From: Caulobacteraceae bacterium
GTDB lineage: Bacteria; Pseudomonadota; Alphaproteobacteria; Caulobacterales; Caulobacteraceae
Reading direction: 5' to 3'
Length of the DNA: 64,000 nucleotides
NCBI GenBank assembly: GCA_036388855.1
Contig: DASVRA010000011.1
Location: 38,253-102,252 of the forward strand
The notes under the pieces are model-generated. The model was not told the origin of the DNA, did not search any database, and saw nothing but the letters and a program-made list of their open reading frames with translations. How positions within the stretch are numbered: the stretch's first letter is position 1; the number at the start of each line of letters is the position of its first letter. Positions 7,570 to 55,372 of the stretch are shown here, in pieces. The position numbers were made by a program, and so were the translations under genes.

Positions 7570-8589
7570 TTACGCCGCCTGCTCCAGCGGCGCGTCCCAC
7601 TGGCCGAGCGAGGCCAGGCCGTTCATGCGGGCGCGGTGGGCGAAGGCGCGTTGGCCGGCGGCGACGTTCTCGCGCTTGCCCGACCAAGCCTTCTGCGGCG
7701 CGGCCTGGAGGGCGCGGCCGTAGGAGAAGGTCATCTTCCAGGGGAAGCCGCCGATTTTGTTCATGGCGTTCAGGTGGGCGGTGGCCTCCTCGTCCGACTG
7801 GCCGCCGGAGAGGTAGGCGATGCCGGGCACGGCCGAGGGCACGGTGGCCTTGAGCGCGGCGATGGTGCGTTCGGCCACCTCGTCCACCGTAGACTTCTGC
7901 GGGCAGCCCTTGCCGCAGAGGACCATGTTGGGCTTGAGCACCATGCCTTCGAGCGCCACGCGCTGCTCGAACAGCTCCTCGAAGGTGGTCTGCAGCACCC
8001 AGCGGGTGACCTTGTCGCAGCGGTCGATGCCGTGGGCGCCGTCCATCAGCACCTCGGGCTCGACGATCGGCACGACGCCTTCCTGCTGGCAGATGGCGGC
8101 GTAGCGGGCCAGCGCGTGGGCGTTGGACTTGACCGCGCCCCAGGTGGGAATGCCCGGCGCGATGTCGATCACCGCCCGCCACTTGGCGAAACGCGCGCCG
8201 CGCTCGCGGTAGTTGGCCATCCGCTTGGACAGGCCGTCCAGGCCCTTGGTGATGTATTCGCCCGGGAAGCCGGCCATGCGGCTGGCGCCCCGGTCGACCT
8301 TGATGCCGGGGATGGCGCCGGCGGCGGTGATCAGCTCGACCAGGGGCGTGCCGTCCTCGGCGTCCTGGAACAGGGTCTCCTCGAACAGGATCACGCCGGA
8401 GATGTGCTTCATCCCCTCGGCCGAGCGGAACAGCATCTCGCGGTAATCGCGGCGGTTCTGTTCGGTGTTCTCCACCCCGATCGGGTCGAAGCGCTTCTGG
8501 ATGGTGCCCATCGACTCGTCGGCGGCAAGGATGCCCTTGCCGGGCGTCACCATCCGGTTGGCGATGTCGTTCAGTGCGTTCAGGTCCAT
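7570..8589 (-). CDS. fba: fructose-bisphosphate aldolase, class I
   Basis: N-terminus MDLNALNDIANRMVTPGKGILAADES is typical of class I aldolases. ATG at 8589 chosen inside ORF 7570..8649. Confidence 0.9.
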   Translation of the reverse strand: MDLNALNDIANRMVTPGKGILAADESMGTIQKRFDPIGVENTEQNRRDYREMLFRSAEGMKHISGVILFEETLFQDAEDGTPLVELITAAGAIPGIKVDRGASRMAGFPGEYITKGLDGLSKRMANYRERGARFAKWRAVIDIAPGIPTWGAVKSNAHALARYAAICQQEGVVPIVEPEVLMDGAHGIDRCDKVTRWVLQTTFEELFEQRVALEGMVLKPNMVLCGKGCPQKSTVDEVAERTIAALKATVPSAVPGIAYLSGGQSDEEATAHLNAMNKIGGFPWKMTFSYGRALQAAPQKAWSGKRENVAAGQRAFAHRARMNGLASLGQWDAPLEQAA

Positions 8590-8600
8590 GGTCCCAGCCT

Positions 8601-9791
8601 CTATGCTTGCAGCGCCGCCACCCCGGGCAGCGTCTTGCCTTCCATCCATTCCAGGAACGCGCCGCCGGCGGTGGAGACGAAGGTGAAGTCTCCCGCCACG
8701 CCCGCGTGGTTCAGCGCCGCCACCGTATCGCCGCCCCCGGCCACGGCGACAAGCCTGCCGCCCTTGGCTAGCTGCGCCGCGTACCGCGCGGCCTCGACCG
8801 TGGCGCGGTCGAAGGGCGGAACCTCGAACACGCCGAGCGGGCCGTTCCAGATCAGGGTCTTGCAGCGGTCCATGGTGTCGAGCAGCCGGCGCACGCTGTC
8901 AGGCCCCGCGTCGAGGATCTTGTCCTGGGGCCCCACCTCGCCGAGCCCGCAGGTGCGGCTCTCGGCGCCAGGCGCCACCTCGCGGGCGACCACCACATCC
9001 GTCGGCAGCAGGATTTCGCAGCCCTGCGCCTGCGCCTTGTCCAGGATTTCGCGCGCGGTGTCGGCCATCTCCCGCTCGGCCAGCGAGGCGCCGATGTCGT
9101 GCCCTTGGGCGAACAGTAAGGTGTTGGCCATGCCGCCGCCGATGGCGAGGTGCTGCAGCTTGCCGACCAGGTTGTTCAGCAGGTCGAGCTTGGTGGAGAC
9201 CTTGGCCCCGCCGACTATGCCGATCACCGGCCGCTGCGGGTTGCCCAGCGCCTTGTCCAGCGCCTCCAGCTCCGCCTGCATGGCCAGCCCCGGATAGGCG
9301 GGCAGCCGCCGCGCCAGCCCTTCGGTCGAGGCGTGCGCCCGGTGGGCGGCGGAGAAGGCGTCGTTCACGTAGAGGTCGCCGAGCCGGGCCAGTTGGTCAG
9401 CGAAGGCGGGGTCGTTCTGCTCCTCGCCAGCGTGGAAGCGCAGGTTCTCCAGCAGCGCCACGCCGCCGTCCTCCAGCGCGTTCACCACCCGCTCGGCCTC
9501 CGGGCCGACGCAGTCGGGGGCGAAAGCCACCGGCTGCTCCAGCAGCGCCGACAGCGGCTCCACCACGGGCTTGAGGCTCATCTCCCGGTTCGGCTTGCCC
9601 TTGGGCCGGCCGAAGTGGGCCAGCAGCACCACCTTGGCGCCGGCCACGCTCAGCGCTCGGATCGTCGGCAGCGCCGCCCGCAGGCGGGTGTCGTCGCCGA
9701 CCCGGCCGTCCGACATCGGCACGTTGAAGTCCACGCGGACGAGGGCGCGCTTGCCGGTCAGATCAGCGTTTGCGAGAGAGCGGAAGGTCAT
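8601..9791 (-). CDS. pgk: phosphoglycerate kinase
   Basis: [26 protein letters not shown] start, 397 aa, full-length Pgk-like. ATG at 9791 inside ORF 8601..10067. Confidence 0.95.
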
Positions 9792-9792
9792 T

Positions 9793-10350
9793 CTACCTGG
9801 TGCCTTGTTCAAGCTGGCATTCAATGCCTCGCAGGGCAAGTGAACGGCAGACCTTGTCCAACACCACGTTATTGTCCCTATGCGAGACGAAGTACTGCCC
9901 TGCGAGTATCGCCTCCAGGCCACTCGGCATCGCCCAAATCTTCGATCCAAAGTTCTGACTACCGCCTTCCAGGTAGTAGGCGTGCGGGTTCTCCACTCGT
10001 CGATTGTTTTCGAAGACCAGCGGCTTGGCTTCGATCCACTGCTTGAACGCTCGGTGCACGGCCTCAAACCGAGTTGCGACCGCCCTCAGGTTCGAAGCAA
10101 GGAAGTGAACTTCTCCAACACTCCAAAGTACACCGCGCCTGATGTTTGGTAGGGCGACCGTGATTACGGGGGACTTATTCGTATCGATTGAGCCGTCTGC
10201 GGCATGAGCCAAGGGCCCGAACTCACGGAAGTACAGAGTACGGCCAATTTTGTTCGCCACCTCTTCAGGCGGGGCATTAAGACTTCGAAACCAGCCTAGC
10301 ACTTCGCTTTCACCGGCGGGCGCTTCAACGAAATGGTAGGCTGCTGACAC
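9793..10350 (-). CDS. orphan hypothetical protein inserted between gap and pgk
   Basis: 185-codon open frame (tail of ORF 9793..11184) lying wholly between the gap stop (10371) and the pgk ATG (9791). The only plausible start is GTG 10350. The TAG stop is 1 nt before the pgk ATG. Hand-counted lines are 53-55 % G+C, against about 70 % in the flanks. Amino-acid composition is protein-like, not Arg/Pro-rich shadow. No family recognised. Confidence 0.55.
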
Positions 10351-10370
10351 GGTGGAGCCCTGCAGAAGCC

Positions 10371-11378
10371 TCAGATGAACTTGCCGAGCTGCAGGGCGGT
10401 ATCGGCCATCTTGGTCGAGAAGGCCCATTCGTTGTCGTACCAGCTCAGCACACGGGCCAGCTTGCCTTCGATCACCTGGGTCTGGGGCAGGGCGACGTTC
10501 GACGTGGTGGCGGTGTGGTTGAAGTCGCTGGAGACCAGCGGCTCGGTCCAAACCGCGAGGGTGCCCTTCATCGGCCCCTCGGCGGCGGCGCGCATGGCCT
10601 CGTTGATCTCGTCCTTGGAGACGTCGCGCGAGGGCGTGAACACCAGGTCGACCACCGAGACGTTCGGCGTGGGCACGCGGATCGAGGAGCCGTCGAGCTT
10701 GCCCGCAAGTTCGGGCAGCACCAGGCCCACGGCCTTGGCCGCGCCGGTGGAGGTGGGGATCATGTTCTGGGCCGCGGCGCGGGCGCGGTAGAGGTCCTTG
10801 TGCAGCTGGTCGAGCGAGGGCTGGTCGTTGGTGTAGCTGTGCACCGTCGTCATGTAGCCGCGCTCGATGCCGCAGAGTTCGTGCAGCACCTTGGCCACCG
10901 GCGCCAGGCAGTTGGTGGTGCACGACGCGTTGGAGATAATGTCGTCCTCGGCGGTGATGCTGTCGTGGTTGACGCCGAAGACGATGGTCTTGGACACCCC
11001 GTCCGCCGGCGCCGAAATCAGCACCTTCTTGGCCCCGGCCTCGATGTGCGCCCGCGCCTTGTCGGCGGAGGTGAAGATGCCGGTGCATTCCAGCGCGATG
11101 TCGACGCCGAGGTCGCGGTGCGGCAGTTCGGCCGGGTTGCGCACCGCCGTGCACCTGATCCGGCCCAGGCCGATGTCGATCCAATCCTCGCCCGCGTCTA
11201 CGTTGCCGGGGAAGCGGCCGTGGGTGGTGTCGTAGCGGAGCAGGTGGGCGTTGGTGGCCACCGGCCCCAGGTCATTGATCGCCACCACCTCGATGTCGCG
11301 CCGCCCGTGCTCGAAGATCGAGCGCAGCACCAGCCGGCCGATGCGGCCGAACCCGTTGATCGCGACTCTCAGGGCCAT
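10371..11378 (-). CDS. gap: glyceraldehyde-3-phosphate dehydrogenase
   Basis: INGFGRIGR Rossmann start and catalytic SCTTNCLAP motif. GGGAG SD upstream. Confidence 0.95.
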   Translation of the reverse strand: MALRVAINGFGRIGRLVLRSIFEHGRRDIEVVAINDLGPVATNAHLLRYDTTHGRFPGNVDAGEDWIDIGLGRIRCTAVRNPAELPHRDLGVDIALECTGIFTSADKARAHIEAGAKKVLISAPADGVSKTIVFGVNHDSITAEDDIISNASCTTNCLAPVAKVLHELCGIERGYMTTVHSYTNDQPSLDQLHKDLYRARAAAQNMIPTSTGAAKAVGLVLPELAGKLDGSSIRVPTPNVSVVDLVFTPSRDVSKDEINEAMRAAAEGPMKGTLAVWTEPLVSSDFNHTATTSNVALPQTQVIEGKLARVLSWYDNEWAFSTKMADTALQLGKFI

Positions 11379-11502
11379 GCCGTCAATCTCCCAATGGCGA
11401 AGCCGCCCGGCGCTGGCGCGGGGCGGCTGAAGGCTGCGTATCCGTGTGCGGCAGGGATGTCGCGGCGTGACGCCGCAGTGTCAACCCTGCCGCCAGGGTT
11501 CG

Positions 11503-13290
11503 TCAGTGGCGGACCCGGACGTAGGAGCCGGGGGCAGCTTCGAGCGCCGGGAGCTTGCCGTCGCCCGGCGTGCGGGCGGGAACCTGCTCCTGGCCTTCGG
11601 TCGCCCAGGCGCGCCAGAAGGGCCACCAGGAGCCGTCGTGGCGCTCGGCCCCGGCCATCCAATCGTCGGGGCTCGCCGGCTTCTCTGGGTTGGTCCAGTA
11701 GCCGTGCTTGCCCGCCGCCGGGGGGTTGATCACGCCGGCGTTGTGGCCCGAACCCCCGAGCGTGAAGGTCACCGGACCGCCGAACATCTGGAGGCCCTTG
11801 TAGGTCGCCTGCCAGCCGGACACGTGGTCCTCCTTCATCGAGATGAAGTGGATCGGCGTCTTCACTTTCTTCAAATCGATCGGCTTACCGTCGATGGTCA
11901 CCCCGCCGGGCCGCGACAGCCCGTTTCCGCGCACCACGTCCTTGAGGTAGCTGTTCAGCAGGCCCTCGGGCATGCGCGCGGCGTCGTCGAACCAGAACAG
12001 CAGGTCCGAGGCCGGCGACTGCTCGCCCATCAGGTAGTGCTGCACGAACGGCCCCCAGATCAGGTCGTTCGACCGCACCACGCTGAACAGCTTGGCCAAA
12101 TCCTTGGCCTCGACGTAGCCCTTGCCCGACAGGTAGCGGGCGAAGGCCTCGGTCTCCCGCTCGCCCATGAACCCCGACCATTCGCCGAGCGCGGTGAAGT
12201 CGATCAGCGCCCCGATCAGCGTCGCGCTGGCCACGCGGTCATCCTCGCCGATCGCCTGCAAATAACCCAGGCTGATCGCCAGCAGTGTCCCGCCCATGCA
12301 GAAGCTGGTGACGTCCACCGCCCGCTCGCCGGTCGCCTGCTCGATCGCGCGCAGCGCCTCGACCACGCCCTCCTTGACGAAGGCGGTCAGGTCTTTTTCC
12401 CGGTGCGCCTCGTCCGGGTTGGCCCAGGAGATCACGAACACCGTCTGCCCCTGGTCCACCAGCCACTTCAGCAGGCTGGAGCGCGGCTGCAGGTCGAACA
12501 GGTAATACTTGTTGACCATCGGCGGCACCATCAGCACCGGCCGCCGCGCCACCGTCTCGGTGGTGGGGCTGTACTGGATCAGCTCCATCAGATCGTTGCG
12601 GAACACCACCGCGCCGGGCGTCGCCGCGATGGTCTTGCCGATCTCGAAGCTCTCGGCCGGGCGGCGCTGCACCAGGCCGTGGCCCCCGGCGGCGTCCTCC
12701 AGCGCGTAGGCCGCGCCCTGGAGCAGGTTGACCCCGCCGGTCTCCAGCGTCTTGCGCACCACAGCAGGGTTTGTGGCGGCGAAGTTGGTCGGGCTGATCG
12801 CAGCGATGAACTGGCGAATCAGGAAGGAGGCGCGCACGCGCGTGTCCTCGTCCAACCCTTCAGCTCCGTCCACCAGCTGTTGCAGCCGCTCGGCGGTGAC
12901 CAGGTAGGACTGGCGCAGGAAGTCGAAGCCGGGCTGGTCCCAGCCGGAGTCCTTGAAGCGGCGGTCGCCCTTGGCGGGCTGCACGGCCGGGGCGATCTCC
13001 TCGCCCATCGCGCGGCGAGCGGTGTTCTCGGCCACCTCGCCAAAGGCGCGCCAGGTCTCCGCCTGGGCCTGCGCCAGCTTCAGCGGGTTCGACCACAAAG
13101 CCAGACCGAAGTCGGTCATGGTCTTCAGCGCGGCGGACGGGTCATAAGGCGCCTCGGCCGGCTTCAGCGCGCGCTCGGCCAAGCCCCGCTGCACGGCGGC
13201 GGCGTTCTCGACGATCTCGGCCATCGCCTTGCCGGCGGCGATGAAGTCGGGCGCCTGGGGTGCGGTGTTCCAGAGTTCGGTTTTGGTCAT
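11503..13290 (-). CDS. phaC: class I poly(R)-hydroxyalkanoate synthase
   Basis: Lipase-box FCMGGTL and length 595 aa. ATG 13290 is preceded by AGGAGG. The ORF track extends to 13686. Confidence 0.9.
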   Translation of the reverse strand: MTKTELWNTAPQAPDFIAAGKAMAEIVENAAAVQRGLAERALKPAEAPYDPSAALKTMTDFGLALWSNPLKLAQAQAETWRAFGEVAENTARRAMGEEIAPAVQPAKGDRRFKDSGWDQPGFDFLRQSYLVTAERLQQLVDGAEGLDEDTRVRASFLIRQFIAAISPTNFAATNPAVVRKTLETGGVNLLQGAAYALEDAAGGHGLVQRRPAESFEIGKTIAATPGAVVFRNDLMELIQYSPTTETVARRPVLMVPPMVNKYYLFDLQPRSSLLKWLVDQGQTVFVISWANPDEAHREKDLTAFVKEGVVEALRAIEQATGERAVDVTSFCMGGTLLAISLGYLQAIGEDDRVASATLIGALIDFTALGEWSGFMGERETEAFARYLSGKGYVEAKDLAKLFSVVRSNDLIWGPFVQHYLMGEQSPASDLLFWFDDAARMPEGLLNSYLKDVVRGNGLSRPGGVTIDGKPIDLKKVKTPIHFISMKEDHVSGWQATYKGLQMFGGPVTFTLGGSGHNAGVINPPAAGKHGYWTNPEKPASPDDWMAGAERHDGSWWPFWRAWATEGQEQVPARTPGDGKLPALEAAPGSYVRVRH

Positions 13291-50630: not shown

Positions 50631-51458
50631 ATGCACATCGAACGCATCGCCGCCTTCTCCGACGGCGAGACCGGAGGCAACCCCGCCGGCGTCGTCCTGT
50701 GCGAAGCCCTTCCCAGCCCCCAGGCCATGCAGGCCCTCGCCGCCGAGGTCGGCTATTCCGAGACCGCCTTCGCCGCGCCGCAGGGGGACGGCTGGCGCGT
50801 GCGCTATTTCGCGCCGGCGATGGAGGTGCCGTTCTGCGGCCACGCCACCATCGCGCTGGGTGCGGCGCTGGCCGAGAAGCACGGCGACGGCGTCTTCGCC
50901 CTGCACCTGAACGCGGCGGAGATCACCGTCGAAGGCTGGTGCGAGGACGGCGCGCTGATGGCGGCCCTGCAGTCGCCCCCGACCCGCAGCGCCCCCGCGC
51001 CCGCCGGCCTGACCGCCGCCGCGCTGGACCTGTTCGGCTACGCCCCCGCCGATCTCGACCCCCGCCTGCCGCCCGCGATCATCGAGGCCGGGGCGCGCCA
51101 CCTGCTGCTGGCGTTACGCAGCCGAGAGCGGCTGGCGGCGATGGCCTACGACCTGGAGCAGGGACGCGCCCTGATGACCGCCGCCGGCCTCGTCACCATC
51201 AGCCTGGTGCAGGCCGAGACCCCCGCCCGCTTCCACGCCCGCAACCCCTTCGCCGCGGGCGGCGTCTACGAGGACCCGGCCACCGGCGCCGCCGCCGCAG
51301 CCCTGGCCGGCTACCTGCGCGACCTCCGCTGGCCCCACGGCGGGGAGATCGAGGTGCTGCAAGGCGCCGACATGGGCGTGCCGTGCCGCCTGCGGGCGGA
51401 GATCACCAATGAGGCGGGGGCGAGCGTGCGGGTGTGGGGGCGGACGCGGGGGATTTGA
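50631..51458 (+). CDS. PhzF-family isomerase
   Basis: AAFSDGETGGNPAGVV, SETAF and VPFCGHATIA motifs. ATG 50631 (GTG 50619 is possible). Confidence 0.85.
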   Translation: MHIERIAAFSDGETGGNPAGVVLCEALPSPQAMQALAAEVGYSETAFAAPQGDGWRVRYFAPAMEVPFCGHATIALGAALAEKHGDGVFALHLNAAEITVEGWCEDGALMAALQSPPTRSAPAPAGLTAAALDLFGYAPADLDPRLPPAIIEAGARHLLLALRSRERLAAMAYDLEQGRALMTAAGLVTISLVQAETPARFHARNPFAAGGVYEDPATGAAAAALAGYLRDLRWPHGGEIEVLQGADMGVPCRLRAEITNEAGASVRVWGRTRGI

Positions 51459-51627
51459 GTGGGCACGCCCTCTTTGACGATGAAGTTAGGTATGGTGTCC
51501 CTCCAAGCCCCCTCCCCACAATGGCCGCTACACTCTGCCTCGGCCGGGGTTATCGACCTTGCGTGCGAGGTGGTGGTAGGCTCCCTAACCGGCGATTGGC
51601 TCCGGAGGGAGAAGCGAGGCTTCGCTT

Positions 51628-52488
51628 GTGACCGCATCGCAACCGAGCATTCCCACGATGCGTTCGGTGTCGCCGTTTCGGTATCCGGGCGGGAAGGCCT
51701 TTCTCTACAGGTATCTTAACGATCGACTCAATTCGTTACCGGAAGGCCGACGCATCTATGCCGAGCCATACTGCGGCGGGGCGGGGGCTGCGGTCATTCT
51801 CCTTAAGTTAGGTGCTGTCGAAGAAATCCATCTCAATGATGCTGATCTCAAAGTATATTCGGCTTGGGAAGCCATTCTTACTGAGTCGGAGCGATTTGCT
51901 TCGCAGATCATGTCAACACCTGTGGACATGTTCACTTGGTATGCGTGCCGAGAGTTAGTCGAAGGTGCGACTGAGCCGAGCTTTGAGCTGGGTTTCGCAA
52001 CGTTCTTTCTAAATCGGACGAGCCGGTCTGGCATTGTGGTCGGCGCAGGGCCGATCGGTGGGTATGAACAGCGAGGGACTTGGAAGATCGACGCGAGATT
52101 CAATAGAGAGGCATTGGCGGATCGAGTTCGATGGCTAGGATCAGTTCGTCATTCCATCAAGTTGACTCAAGAAGACGCGTTGACTTTCTTATCTCGCTCT
52201 ACCGCCCGCCTCTCGTTGGACCGAACGCTCTTTTTTGTAGACCCACCGTACGTCACCGCTGGCGGGCGGCTTTATTTGAACGCGATGGACGAGGGAAAGC
52301 ACATCGCCTTAAGTGATGTCCTCCAGGGCGGTACGCTGCCCCACTGGGTTCTGACTTACGACAATCACCCGCTTATTCTGGACCTATACAGCCGTCAAAC
52401 AATCCGTGACCTCTGCGTAAGCTACAGCCTTCAGAACAAGCGAAAGGAGCGCGAAGTACTCATTGGCGATCATGCCGCCTGCGCATAA
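51628..52488 (+). CDS. D12-class (Dam-like) N6-adenine DNA methyltransferase
   Basis: SPFRYPGGKAFL, EPYCGGAGA (SAM site), FFLNRTSRSG and catalytic FVDPPY. The start is GTG 51628 or ATG 51658. Confidence 0.85.
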   Translation: MTASQPSIPTMRSVSPFRYPGGKAFLYRYLNDRLNSLPEGRRIYAEPYCGGAGAAVILLKLGAVEEIHLNDADLKVYSAWEAILTESERFASQIMSTPVDMFTWYACRELVEGATEPSFELGFATFFLNRTSRSGIVVGAGPIGGYEQRGTWKIDARFNREALADRVRWLGSVRHSIKLTQEDALTFLSRSTARLSLDRTLFFVDPPYVTAGGRLYLNAMDEGKHIALSDVLQGGTLPHWVLTYDNHPLILDLYSRQTIRDLCVSYSLQNKRKEREVLIGDHAACA

Positions 52489-53450
52489 GCGCAGTAGCCG
52501 TAGACCCACGCCCGAACATCATCGATGAGATCGGCACCGTCGACCGGTACCCCTGCTGCGGATAGTTGGAGCCCCTGCCACGCCCTGAGCGGCAATCTGG
52601 AACGCTCGAGAATCGCGCGATGGTATTGGTGCATGAGATTCCAATGTCGCTGATCAATCACTCGAAACGGGATTAGAGTGACATGAGTAATGTTACCCGT
52701 CGCGTGATCCTGAATGTAGGCGGCAGTGAACGTGTCGGCTCGGTTTGCTACGGGCTTGTCTTCCCAGTTTCGTCCGCTAGCCGTTTGCCCAAAATAAAAC
52801 ACTGTCGGTGGCGGCTGCCCGTCAAGGGTAAAGGCGATGACGTCGATGCCGCCATCCTTCTCTTTGGGTGGGGTGTAAGCGCCCGGGGGATTTCGAACCG
52901 TGAACCCTGCGCCCGCGGCTGCGGCACGGTTCAGCAGTTCGACGATGGCCTCTCCCGATTGACGAGGCCATCCAACGCTGAATGCCGGTCCACCGGCTAG
53001 ACCAGCAACACCTAGGGTAGCGACGATCTGAAATACCTTGTTCCGGAGCTCCAACAGCATTTCGTCGGTAGGAGGTTTATCCAGTATTGAGGATCCCGTA
53101 GCGTGAGCCGCCACAAGGCAGACGATGTAGAACACCAATTTGGGTTCATCCCGCCAACTCAGGTTGATGGTGACCTCGTCACCAGACTCGGATAGCTGGT
53201 AGGGGTACGTGTCTTCGAGGGTTTTCTGCCGGAATGAAACCTCAGCCTCGATGCGCTCAACGAGCTGCTCGCGCCCCTGATCCCGCCGCCCTATGTCATC
53301 TTCCGCAGTCGGTTCTAGTTCCGCCAGCGAACCTAGGAGCGCATCCAGTCTGGACACCCCGTACGGGTCGAAAAGCGCGGCGAGCTCTAGCCAGTCGACA
53401 AGGTCATCAACTTCAAGGGCAAGATTAGGCGCGTTGACTACCTGGGACAT
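52470..53450 (-). CDS. orphan 326-aa protein, possible degenerate nuclease-like core
   Basis: Full ORF with ATG, starting 8 nt after the upstream stop. The segment KDGGIDVIAF...FYFGQTASGRNW is only loosely reminiscent of Mrr-cat/PD-(D/E)xK. No family recognised. Low-GC codon usage matches the island. Confidence 0.6.
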   Translation of the reverse strand: MSQVVNAPNLALEVDDLVDWLELAALFDPYGVSRLDALLGSLAELEPTAEDDIGRRDQGREQLVERIEAEVSFRQKTLEDTYPYQLSESGDEVTINLSWRDEPKLVFYIVCLVAAHATGSSILDKPPTDEMLLELRNKVFQIVATLGVAGLAGGPAFSVGWPRQSGEAIVELLNRAAAAGAGFTVRNPPGAYTPPKEKDGGIDVIAFTLDGQPPPTVFYFGQTASGRNWEDKPVANRADTFTAAYIQDHATGNITHVTLIPFRVIDQRHWNLMHQYHRAILERSRLPLRAWQGLQLSAAGVPVDGADLIDDVRAWVYGYCAYAQAA

Positions 53451-53458
53451 TTCGCTTG

Positions 53459-54610
53459 CTATGACAGCGTAGCGCTAGCGACCGCCGAATCCACCTGGGT
53501 CTTGACGATGCCTGCTCTCTTTGCCGCCGAATCCGCGATCATTTGAAGCTCCGGCTGCGCAATAGGGTCGAAGCCTTCAAGCGTCGTCAAGGCATGTTGT
53601 AGCTCGGCATTGGCGCTGATGAGGTGGCGTTGAAAGCGAATATCTACTGGCGTAGCCGTGATGATCGCTTCATCCAGGTTGTTTCGCTCTGTTAACACGC
53701 TGATGGCCGCCGGTGAGGACAACACTTCCCGTAACCTACCAAGATCAGGGTTTTGGCTCTTAACGGCGGGCTCTAAGTCCCGATCTTTAGAGCCGTACAG
53801 CCATATCAGTAGGTTACGAAGTTCGCTAAACTTGCCTTCTGGCACCGGATCCAAACTTGGATCGGCCGATCGGTCCGCTCTTGGCATTCCGAGATAGGCC
53901 GTGAATTCCTCATAGGCCAGGCCGGTATAAAGGTGGGAGAAGCTGAAAGATTTCCGCTTTCGGTCTGAAAGATCATAGATGCGGTTCTTCTCGGCCTGAT
54001 TCAGAACATAGAGCGCAGCGACCATGCGGTGCATCGTCATGTGCTGATCGCCCATCCGACTGGCAATCTGACTAAGGTTCATGCTGGGCTGGCCAGACGC
54101 CCGTTTCCGGTTTTCATCATCTAACCAGCGCGCGGCGAAACGAGCTTTGGCGAAGGCGTCCCACGATTGAGGTCCGTTGATGTGCTTGAATCCAATTAGA
54201 TCCCGCGCGTCGTCCTCGCGTTCAACACGAAACACCAGCAGCTCATTGAGCGTTGCTGCTTTGTCTGGCTCCATCGGTGGAACCGTCGTTCGCGCCGCCC
54301 GAGCAAGTTCTGGGTCACGCAAAACCTTTACCGCTGCCAAGCGGCGGTTTCCCTCCAGGACTGCTAATCGACTATCGCGCTCGATAACAATCAATGGCTC
54401 GATATTGATATAGCCGCTAGTCGAAATGGACTGGATCAATTCGGACAAATCCGCGGACGCAGCCAACGTGGCAATGATCGCGCTGTCGGTCGATTCCGCA
54501 GGCCGTTTGTCCGGAGTAAATCGGGGATTATTCTCATCGAAATCTAGGAGTTCAACGGGAACTTTCGCGGCCTCACCGATCGGAGGCAGAAGCACGCTAC
54601 CGTCGGCCAT
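53459..54610 (-). CDS. ParB/Srx-fold N-terminal domain + HTH protein (stand-alone, no ParA)
   Basis: ParB N-domain box VLEGNRRLAAVKVL. HTH-like NLSQIASRMGDQHMTMHRMVAALYVL. GGGGA SD 6 nt before the ATG. The C-terminal ~170 aa are unassigned. Confidence 0.7.
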   Translation of the reverse strand: MADGSVLLPPIGEAAKVPVELLDFDENNPRFTPDKRPAESTDSAIIATLAASADLSELIQSISTSGYINIEPLIVIERDSRLAVLEGNRRLAAVKVLRDPELARAARTTVPPMEPDKAATLNELLVFRVEREDDARDLIGFKHINGPQSWDAFAKARFAARWLDDENRKRASGQPSMNLSQIASRMGDQHMTMHRMVAALYVLNQAEKNRIYDLSDRKRKSFSFSHLYTGLAYEEFTAYLGMPRADRSADPSLDPVPEGKFSELRNLLIWLYGSKDRDLEPAVKSQNPDLGRLREVLSSPAAISVLTERNNLDEAIITATPVDIRFQRHLISANAELQHALTTLEGFDPIAQPELQMIADSAAKRAGIVKTQVDSAVASATLS

Positions 54611-54757
54611 TTGTATCCCCTAGCTTACAGATGAAATGGCAGCTTCACACTGTCGTAGCTGTTTGAGCCTTCCGGGCAGGGAGTCAACCGCTCGGCCTGC
54701 TTGTCCACCGGCTTGCGCTTCCAGGAAGCTTCGCGGCAGTCGCACCTGGCCGCAGCG

Positions 54758-55372
54758 TCACTTCGGACCGGGCGCCCCATGCCCCGAGTGGTCATGCCCC
54801 CCGCCGTCGGCCTTCGGCGCCGCCTTCGGGTACCGCCCCGCGGCCCCCGGCACGGTGACCAGGCCGCTGATCTCGCCGGGGTTATGGGCGTCAGTGTGGA
54901 TGTTGAGGACGATCAGGCCTTCGCGCAGGGCGCTGACGAAATCCTCGAAGCTCAGGGTGGAGTTCACCAGCCTGGCGCCGGCTGCGTAGTCCATGTCGGT
55001 CGCGGTCACGTGCATGCCGCGCGCGGTGGCGTGGTAGTCCGCGCCGTAGGGCAGCGGCACGACCAGGACCGAGGCGCCGCCGGCGGGGGTGGCGTACTTG
55101 TGCAGGTGGATGGGGCCGATCGGGGCGGCGACCAGCTTGTCCCACAGGGCCTCGGTGGTGATGCCCTCGACCGTCAGGTCCACCGAGACGCGCTGGCGCT
55201 CGGTGTCGACCTTGATCTTCGCCGCGCCCGTGGCCTTCGAACCGGTGGGCGCCGAGCCGTACTTGCCGTCGAGCGCGGCGTCGAAGCTGAGGATCTCCGC
55301 CCGCAGGGGCGTGGCCGAGGCGCTGGCCGCGAGCGCGAGGATGGCGCCGAGCACCGCCTGTTGGATACGCAT
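54758..55372 (-). CDS. CHRD domain-containing secreted protein
   Basis: Signal peptide MRIQQAVLGAILALAASASA. Motifs GPIHLH...G and LNIHTDAHNPGEISG, typical of CHRD. His/Gly-rich tail. ATG 55372 lies inside ORF 54758..55879. Confidence 0.8.
   Translation of the reverse strand: MRIQQAVLGAILALAASASATPLRAEILSFDAALDGKYGSAPTGSKATGAAKIKVDTERQRVSVDLTVEGITTEALWDKLVAAPIGPIHLHKYATPAGGASVLVVPLPYGADYHATARGMHVTATDMDYAAGARLVNSTLSFEDFVSALREGLIVLNIHTDAHNPGEISGLVTVPGAAGRYPKAAPKADGGGHDHSGHGAPGPK

Follow-up and report, generated by a model that had tools for sequence, protein, structure and literature searches.

A gene of foreign composition, designated here as X, fills the space between gap and pgk in a 64,000-nucleotide stretch of Caulobacteraceae DNA (GenBank assembly GCA_036388855.1, contig DASVRA010000011.1, positions 38,253 to 102,252; hereafter the window). 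Based on the data obtained so far we assume, with a probability of about 0.7, that X is an intact, horizontally acquired and promoterless accessory gene fixed in the gap-pgk-fba operon, and that it belongs to a family circulating as a bare single gene, in some genomes as an integron cassette, one sublineage of which is specific for this slot. On the minus strand the stop codon of gap (TGA) is at positions 10373–10371, the GTG start of X at 10350–10348, its TAG stop at 9795–9793, and the ATG of pgk is at 9791. Thus the 185-codon frame, which according to an original prediction made from the sequence alone fills the gap-pgk spacer exactly, was confirmed with its start at 10350 and its end at 9793. 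The same 6.2 kb were found with 100% identity in a second public assembly (ENA), where they lie on a contig of 323 kb versus 124 kb here, and the same X protein is present in a third assembly on a contig of 330 kb. Since the gap-X-pgk sequence is identical in an independent assembly, it is neither an assembler artefact nor a chimera.

The low G+C content of X, originally counted by hand, was upheld by a proper sliding-window calculation, which gave 54–59% in 200-nt windows versus 66–77% in the flanks. With 56.1% over its whole length the gene ranks in the lowest 1% of 54,124 windows of the 2.73-Mb assembly, where the mean is 69.7% (standard deviation 3.9%, 558-nt windows). This contrast is located at third codon positions: the G+C content there (GC3) is 0.63 in X versus 0.93–0.96 in the three operon genes around it. 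Codons rare in the host make up 35% of X versus 2–9% in the neighbouring genes, and an index similar to the codon adaptation index is 0.275 versus 0.66–0.83. Periodicity over codon positions is normal for coding DNA, and the presence of a complete, compositionally foreign gene inside the gap-pgk operon is therefore supported by G+C content, GC3 and codon usage. In most hosts the homologues are also lower in G+C than their flanks, for instance 0.54 versus 0.69 in Frateuria and 0.53 versus 0.65–0.67 in Sphingopyxis. As a separate observation, the 2.7-Mb genome contains about 75 scattered islands with less than 60% G+C, many of them of about 1 kb, i.e. of single-gene size (C4:29351-31259, C17:88701-92059 and C35:179251-180759, and within the window ~51399-54807), and further single-gene insertions resembling X may exist among them.

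X is not a singular case: its three closest homologues were registered in the same slot of other organisms. Protein P0003 (57% identity) is encoded on a 1.8-kb metagenome contig (L064) between the C-terminus of GAPDH and the N-terminus of PGK, thus reproducing the order gap-X-pgk. P0004 (52%) and P0007 (48%) each follow directly the C-terminus of GAPDH on contigs that end just after the gene, so that these two loci (L074 and L075) preserve the order gap-X. Three of the four carriers are short metagenome contigs, which come from the samples JGI 3300065456 (L064), ENA ERZ28569203 (L074) and SRA ERR3697027 (L075). All four copies start with GTG 0–20 nt past the gap stop codon, so the missing ATG, originally taken as a possible sign of decay, is a property of the whole clade. 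The hexanucleotide GGCTTC directly after the gap stop is common to the window and L074. A maximum-likelihood tree built for 73 members of the family unites the slot copies in one clade (ultrafast bootstrap 98, SH-aLRT 96) with branch lengths of 0.36–0.6. Their hosts are Caulobacteraceae-like, and the flanks of L064 are 87–91% identical to two genera of the same family as the window.

X itself was not found in 60 relatives searched, in 400 genomes of the order or in the genus closest to L064, represented by all its 276 species. Among 400 genomes of the family two contain the gene; both belong to Asticcacaulis and carry it at another locus, while none has it in the slot. In about 950 of the relatives sampled the gap-pgk slot is without X. 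Judging from this absence and from the branch lengths, the slot clade is old but rare. A scan of metagenomes for the initial 20 nt of pgk, aimed at an empty site in a near relative, yielded nothing beyond a chance match within an unrelated gene.

The assumption that gap and pgk normally lie next to each other stood only in part. In seven of 17 relatives from the same family the spacer does not exceed 15 nt and in three it is a hairpin or a REP-like (repetitive extragenic palindromic) sequence of 71–185 nt, whereas in five (L009, L010, L016, L020 and L026) a spacer of 333–423 nt contains an unrelated open reading frame (ORF). Four of these five frames encode small membrane proteins and one a soluble low-G+C protein of 110 residues. 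In other families of the order (L022/L023, L024, L034) the slot is occupied by a cupin, a TPMT/TehB-like methyltransferase or a small membrane protein, and no significant pairwise similarity was registered among the slot ORFs of relatives. Thus, the gap-pgk junction looks like a recurrent, general landing site for accessory genes. In L006, which has the most similar Pgk, the GC-rich spacer of 185 nt contains no gene and consists of extended inverted repeats of the GGGAGAAGGG...CCCTTCTCCC type, so that a REP-like element seems to occupy the same slot.

Contrary to the original description of X as an orphan, it belongs to a large family. A word-indexed search returned 34 full-length homologues (163–295 amino acids, 32–57% identity), an exhaustive HMMER search 160 homologous clusters at the 50% level, and a profile search at least 264 clusters or proteins, which, where named, are called “hypothetical protein”, and none of which has a Pfam domain. 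Family members are typically about 180 amino acids long. When one genome was scanned for each species, they were found at 25 loci in Alpha-, Beta- and Gammaproteobacteria, Verrucomicrobia, Acidobacteria and Actinobacteria, and one planctomycete member is present among the profile-search matches. The alignment of 73 sequences revealed conserved blocks WFR, SPxV, PxxRRGVLWTVGEVHF, YYLEGSxxN, LPSGxxALxxGQYFV and LRLRG together with the invariant W105, and the N-termini of homologues align at the proposed GTG of X. X itself can be aligned over the entire length with homologues of 175–190 amino acids, and all its near-invariant positions are intact except for the conservative substitution T77S. Ratios of nonsynonymous to synonymous substitutions (dN/dS) of 0.07–0.30 in eight homologue pairs testify to purifying selection on the family. 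Nine polar residues (S60, R72, T77, E80, Y125, E128, N133, Y153 and R174) are kept in 86–95% of members across phyla.

Neither Pfam nor NCBIfam nor PHROGs gave a match for X or a consistent one across the 73 members, and a profile search against sequences of solved structures (PDB) returned only noise (best E 0.79). The AlphaFold2 model built on the family alignment is a compact alpha/beta domain with a mean pLDDT of 95.6 and a pTM of 0.90. Foldseek found no relative of this model at E ≤ 0.001 in PDB or BFVD (best E in PDB 0.78, TM-score ≤0.27). A likeness to the SRPBCC/Bet v 1 fold, seen for few chains with E>3 and TM-score of about 0.2, was dismissed as chance. No signal peptide or membrane segment is seen by eye, and we propose that the product is a cytoplasmic, soluble single-domain protein acting without a dedicated partner. 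As far as the Pfam, NCBIfam, PADLOC and PHROGs libraries reach, the family is undescribed. Two metagenomic members, P0072 (406 residues) and P0024 (295 residues), contain 100–260 additional in-frame residues at the C-terminus, the extension of P0024 bearing a WDPIGV...DEY motif. These extensions could be either genuine fusions or the result of reading on into an adjacent gene. No Pfam domain was found in P0072, P0155, P0024 and other longer homologues, even if their C-terminal extensions were scanned alone, and the tail of P0155 resembles frameshifted read-through.

A part of this family is cassette-borne. The homologue of Lysobacter defluvii is flanked on both sides by attC sites, which are imperfect palindromes of 60 nt with the ends GCCTAAC...GTTAGGC, and five such palindromes are spaced there by 340–609 nt. 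In a metagenome-assembled genome (MAG) of Stenotrophomonas the homologue is located among at least 17 attC sites, which form an array and decay with distance, and attC-type sites also surround the homologues in a Frateuria MAG and two other gammaproteobacterial MAGs. At the level of separate loci, attC with RYYYAAC...GTTRRRY ends flanks the homologue of L047, and intact or decayed sites were found in L035, L046, L048 and L049. The cassette homologues are single promoterless ORFs that start 9–15 nt past the GTTRRRY core and are followed by attC of about 60 nt. Integrase IntI was detected in all five cassette genomes with 388–502 bits (the NCBIfam cut-off is 265), and in two of them (G936 and G938) intI lies just upstream of the homologue-bearing array, apparently on the same contig. 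Thus, in five gammaproteobacterial genomes the gene is a genuine chromosomal integron cassette. X, with its leader of 20 nt and a single promoterless ORF, matches the cassette-type layout.

Outside integrons the family moves as a bare gene. In three Sphingopyxis species, and likewise in three Asticcacaulis-like genomes, it occupies differing loci, and the DNA common to them is limited to the ORF with about 45 nt upstream and 25–35 nt downstream. Two of the Sphingopyxis species (L050 and L052, positions 9956-10565 in each) share a 610-bp unit with 96.7% identity in wholly different contexts. It consists of the ORF, 45 nt upstream and 34 nt downstream, contains no attC and points to a recent transfer of the bare gene. 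None of 50,697 phage records and only one of 72,556 plasmid records, an 880-kb Burkholderia replicon, contains a homologue. Palindromes similar to REP elements or miniature inverted-repeat transposable elements were noticed close to the homologue in L052 and L056. In Variovorax (L045) direct copies of a CTACAGTCGGCCA(A/T)AA motif bracket the homologue at ~9930–9960 and 10640–10665, and a GACGTGGCGAC tandem repeat is located downstream of it; these repeats could belong to a REP element or to a recombination site of a different kind.

Several results weigh against the proposed history of X. R1, a covariance model derived from 13 attC sites of the Xanthomonadales type only, found no attC near X at E ≤ 1, as did a scan combining regular expressions with folding, and R1 gave no hit in the whole 2.73-Mb genome (the assembly is 95.5% complete). 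The best match to the integrase model TIGR02249 in this genome, 81.6 bits versus the cut-off of 265, is within the range of ordinary tyrosine recombinases, and 14 integron-free control genomes likewise stayed under the cut-off. With neither attC nor intI in this genome, the cassette origin of the X copy is, therefore, not demonstrated. Moreover, in the tree the slot clade groups with alphaproteobacterial members that are not cassette-borne. Finally, GC3 of the four slot copies is 0.61–0.73 versus 0.90–0.96 in gap and pgk of their hosts. Divergence of these copies to about 50% identity should have been accompanied by amelioration of X GC3 towards the host values, yet no such drift was seen in any of the four.

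The distances between slot copies are also unusual. For X they are 0.43–0.52 and do not scale with the host distances of 0.11–0.32 estimated from gap. So, L064 and L074 are 89% identical over the last 56 residues of GAPDH and only 55% in X, while for the window and L064 these values are 70% and 57%. Since the GAPDH fragments are short, this mismatch is suggestive only. Taken with the persisting low GC3, it points to old X alleles exchanged or replaced at the slot, or to selection on the choice of codons, and plain vertical descent fits poorly. One can extend this to a reading that we consider unlikely, namely that the gap-pgk junction of Caulobacteraceae is a miniature variable locus, where divergent alleles of a conflict protein with a novel fold, serving defence, immunity or its own spread, would be swapped by recombination between the conserved glycolytic flanks, this exchange or codon selection keeping their GC3 foreign. 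The four carriers recur at one intergenic site; however, they fall into one clade, and the window and L074 share one junction motif, which a single ancestral insertion would explain as well.

If X is, as we assume, a fixed passenger of the operon, its expression would depend on the neighbours. No promoter-like or terminator-like site was found on the minus strand from gap through fba, a weak consensus test gave no sigma-70-like site in 8400–11800, and no Rfam match was registered at the locus. RNA at the junctions folds no better than shuffled controls (z = −0.56 and −1.01, the former for the X-pgk junction). The transcript of X would be provided by read-through from the gap promoter. The AGG in the spacer upstream of X is weak and badly spaced, and for this reason translation of X is probably achieved through re-initiation at the weak GTG by ribosomes just leaving gap, the stop codon of which is 0–20 nt away in all four loci. 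A Shine-Dalgarno-like AGG of pgk lies within codons 184–185 of X, in line with the original suggestion that the ribosome-binding region of pgk is inside this gene. Judging from the TAG-A-ATG geometry, we infer that translation of X and pgk is coupled, and pgk of the window would thus be served by this coupling in addition to its own AGG. A low level of X protein would be expected on a very abundant mRNA, owing to the weak start and 35% of rare codons.

As to the function, our tentative guess is that X is a stand-alone cytoplasmic enzyme or a small-ligand-binding protein that is beneficial under certain conditions, for instance through detoxification or resistance. It is based on the nine conserved polar residues, the lack of a partner gene and the cassette carriage of the family. 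Conserved in this way, these residues would suit an active or ligand-binding site better than a fast-evolving interaction surface. Two points count against this guess: it rests on the conservation pattern, as no relative of known function was found by fold or sequence, and in P0004 from the slot clade itself serine replaces E80. All-against-all comparison of 28 loci revealed no conserved neighbour family, synteny being limited to two Undibacterium species. The contexts are miscellaneous and include an extracytoplasmic-function sigma factor with a penicillin-binding protein, a cold-shock protein with a VOC protein, a methyltransferase and a region resembling an integrative and conjugative element (ICE). 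In L002 (1–12218) the homologue is found in an ICE- or plasmid-like region with DUF932, Toprim_3/DUF7146, HATPase_c_3 and a fragment of rve integrase, where it heads four tightly packed unannotated small ORFs of the same strand.

Other roles were weighed against this guess. It is unlikely, in our opinion, that X is a single-gene anti-phage defence factor kept at the slot for the usefulness of its constitutive low expression. Cassette carriage in five integrons, patchy distribution and low G+C of the family would suit such a role; phage-defence genes are reported among integron cassettes of unknown function in a preprint (bioRxiv 10.1101/2024.07.02.601719), and conflict-driven exchange predicts just that X distances are out of step with host distances. 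However, PADLOC-DB 2.0 gave nothing for X at E ≤ 10 and only four scattered single-member matches with E>0.01 for the 73 members. In the contexts read, defence genes are not grouped around the homologues, a nuclease, NTPase or another domain of effector type was not recognised, and conservation is strong family-wide, as seen from the dN/dS values. Less probable still is an orphan protein of immunity or antitoxin type directed against a competitor-delivered toxin. X is indeed small, soluble, solitary and mobile, some homologues are located in arrays of small ORFs (L002, L065), and the longer forms P0024 and P0072, fused or run-on, bring extra unannotated domains. Nevertheless, no toxin or other conserved partner adjoins the gene in the 28 loci, no Imm, SUKH or antitoxin family of Pfam or NCBIfam matched X or, consistently, the 73 members, and polar residues conserved across phyla are unlike a fast-evolving toxin interface. 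Thus, for the immunity, antitoxin and defence candidates of the original prediction these searches brought nothing in favour: neither a partner nor a PADLOC match nor a phage copy.

The idea of the slot clade as a selfish element with site specificity, where X or its DNA promotes its own insertion or retention like a homing gene, seems highly improbable to us. It could explain why four deeply divergent alleles are found at one junction, retain low GC3, differ from each other independently of gap distances and are missing from about 950 related genomes. Against it, neither Pfam nor Foldseek comparison with PDB revealed in X a nuclease domain (LAGLIDADG, GIY-YIG, HNH/His-Me or PD-(D/E)xK), the fold search gave no solved-structure match, and the remaining members of the family occupy unrelated sites, while the common GGCTTC junction and the GTG start equally fit one ancestral insertion. 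The alternative of a dead insertion remnant in decay or a chimera of the assembly, to which the GTG start, the weak Shine-Dalgarno sequence and the truncated call of one gene caller might point, is effectively excluded, as X is full length with its conserved residues kept, GTG is used throughout the slot clade, purifying selection acts on the family, the assemblies with contigs of 124, 323 and 330 kb agree fully in sequence, and the same gene order exists in other organisms.

Among known systems, X as an accessory gene of the operon resembles cassettes of sedentary chromosomal integrons of the Xanthomonadales type in being a bare ORF, with only 20 nt upstream and 1 nt downstream, but unlike them it resides in a core metabolic operon without array, attC or IntI. 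Secondary-site insertions, attC-site clusters that have no integron integrase (CALINs) and fused cassettes without attC are documented (Cury et al. 2016, PMC4889954; PMC4670013). Like such stranded or fused cassettes, X is a cassette-type ORF away from the integrase and dependent on a host promoter. However, secondary-site insertions and CALINs keep attC, which is absent at X, and a junction of the GTTRRRY or GNT type is not evident there. With phage morons and other hitch-hiker genes X shares the appearance of a single gene of deviant composition between conserved co-transcribed genes, and the gap-pgk slot repeatedly takes unrelated small genes in relatives. Morons, in contrast, usually have their own promoter and terminator and are located in prophages, whereas X has neither and belongs to a chromosomal glycolytic operon. 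Clusters of O-antigen genes between galF and gnd represent a low-GC variable locus, which is exchanged between conserved flanks. X is similar to such loci in the persistence of atypical G+C, in divergent alleles at one position and in allele distances that deviate from host distances. It differs from them as a single gene of 0.56 kb instead of a multi-gene cluster, and only four carriers are known.

If the proposed interpretation is correct, an unstudied family with at least 264 clusters in several phyla and a confident structural model becomes a target for work on the “dark matter” of integrons. The cassette gene pool would then be tied to stable residence in a core, highly expressed operon of an integron-free genome, which bears on the entry of cassette genes into integrons and their exit from them. 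It would also raise the question of whether GC3 of about 0.6 versus 0.95 in four diverged carriers means that codon selection, for instance for throttled expression, or allele replacement overrides amelioration. If the junction is a variable locus, the slot would represent a new route of persistence for single genes of integron type, which parasitise a core operon.

The features of the locus are listed in Table 1. They include a 9-nt inverted repeat around the gap stop codon, at the left junction of the insertion, which may be either a footprint of the junction or chance. This repeat is not present in the slot carriers L064, L074 and L075, and therefore may be chance.

Table 1. Coordinates of gene X and surrounding features in the window
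Feature	Positions	Strand	Comments
gap (GAPDH, 335 aa)	10371..11378	-	Upstream gene of the operon; from the ORF list; Pfam Gp_dh_N/Gp_dh_C on the identical ENA contig; GC3 0.95
9-nt inverted repeat around the gap stop codon	10357..10397	-	GCCCTGCAG at 10397-10389 (in gap) and CTGCAGGGC at 10365-10357 (in the spacer); seen in the centroid fold
gap-X spacer, 20 nt, GGCTTCTGCAGGGCTCCACC	10351..10370	-	Weak, badly spaced AGG; read from the sequence
Gene X (185 aa, GTG to TAG)	9793..10350	-	Unannotated family of ~180 aa; compact alpha/beta domain predicted; foreign composition
Single base between X stop and pgk start (TAG-A-ATG)	9792..9792	-	Read from the sequence
pgk (396 aa)	8601..9791	-	Downstream gene; Pfam PGK; GC3 0.93
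fba (class I aldolase, 339 aa)	7570..8589	-	Same operon, 11 nt past pgk; Pfam Glycolytic; GC3 0.96

In the output of one gene caller, just the final 88 of the 185 codons of X were annotated. This is an artefact of start choice, and it serves as a warning that GTG-started genes with rare codons are easily mis-called in genomes with high G+C content.

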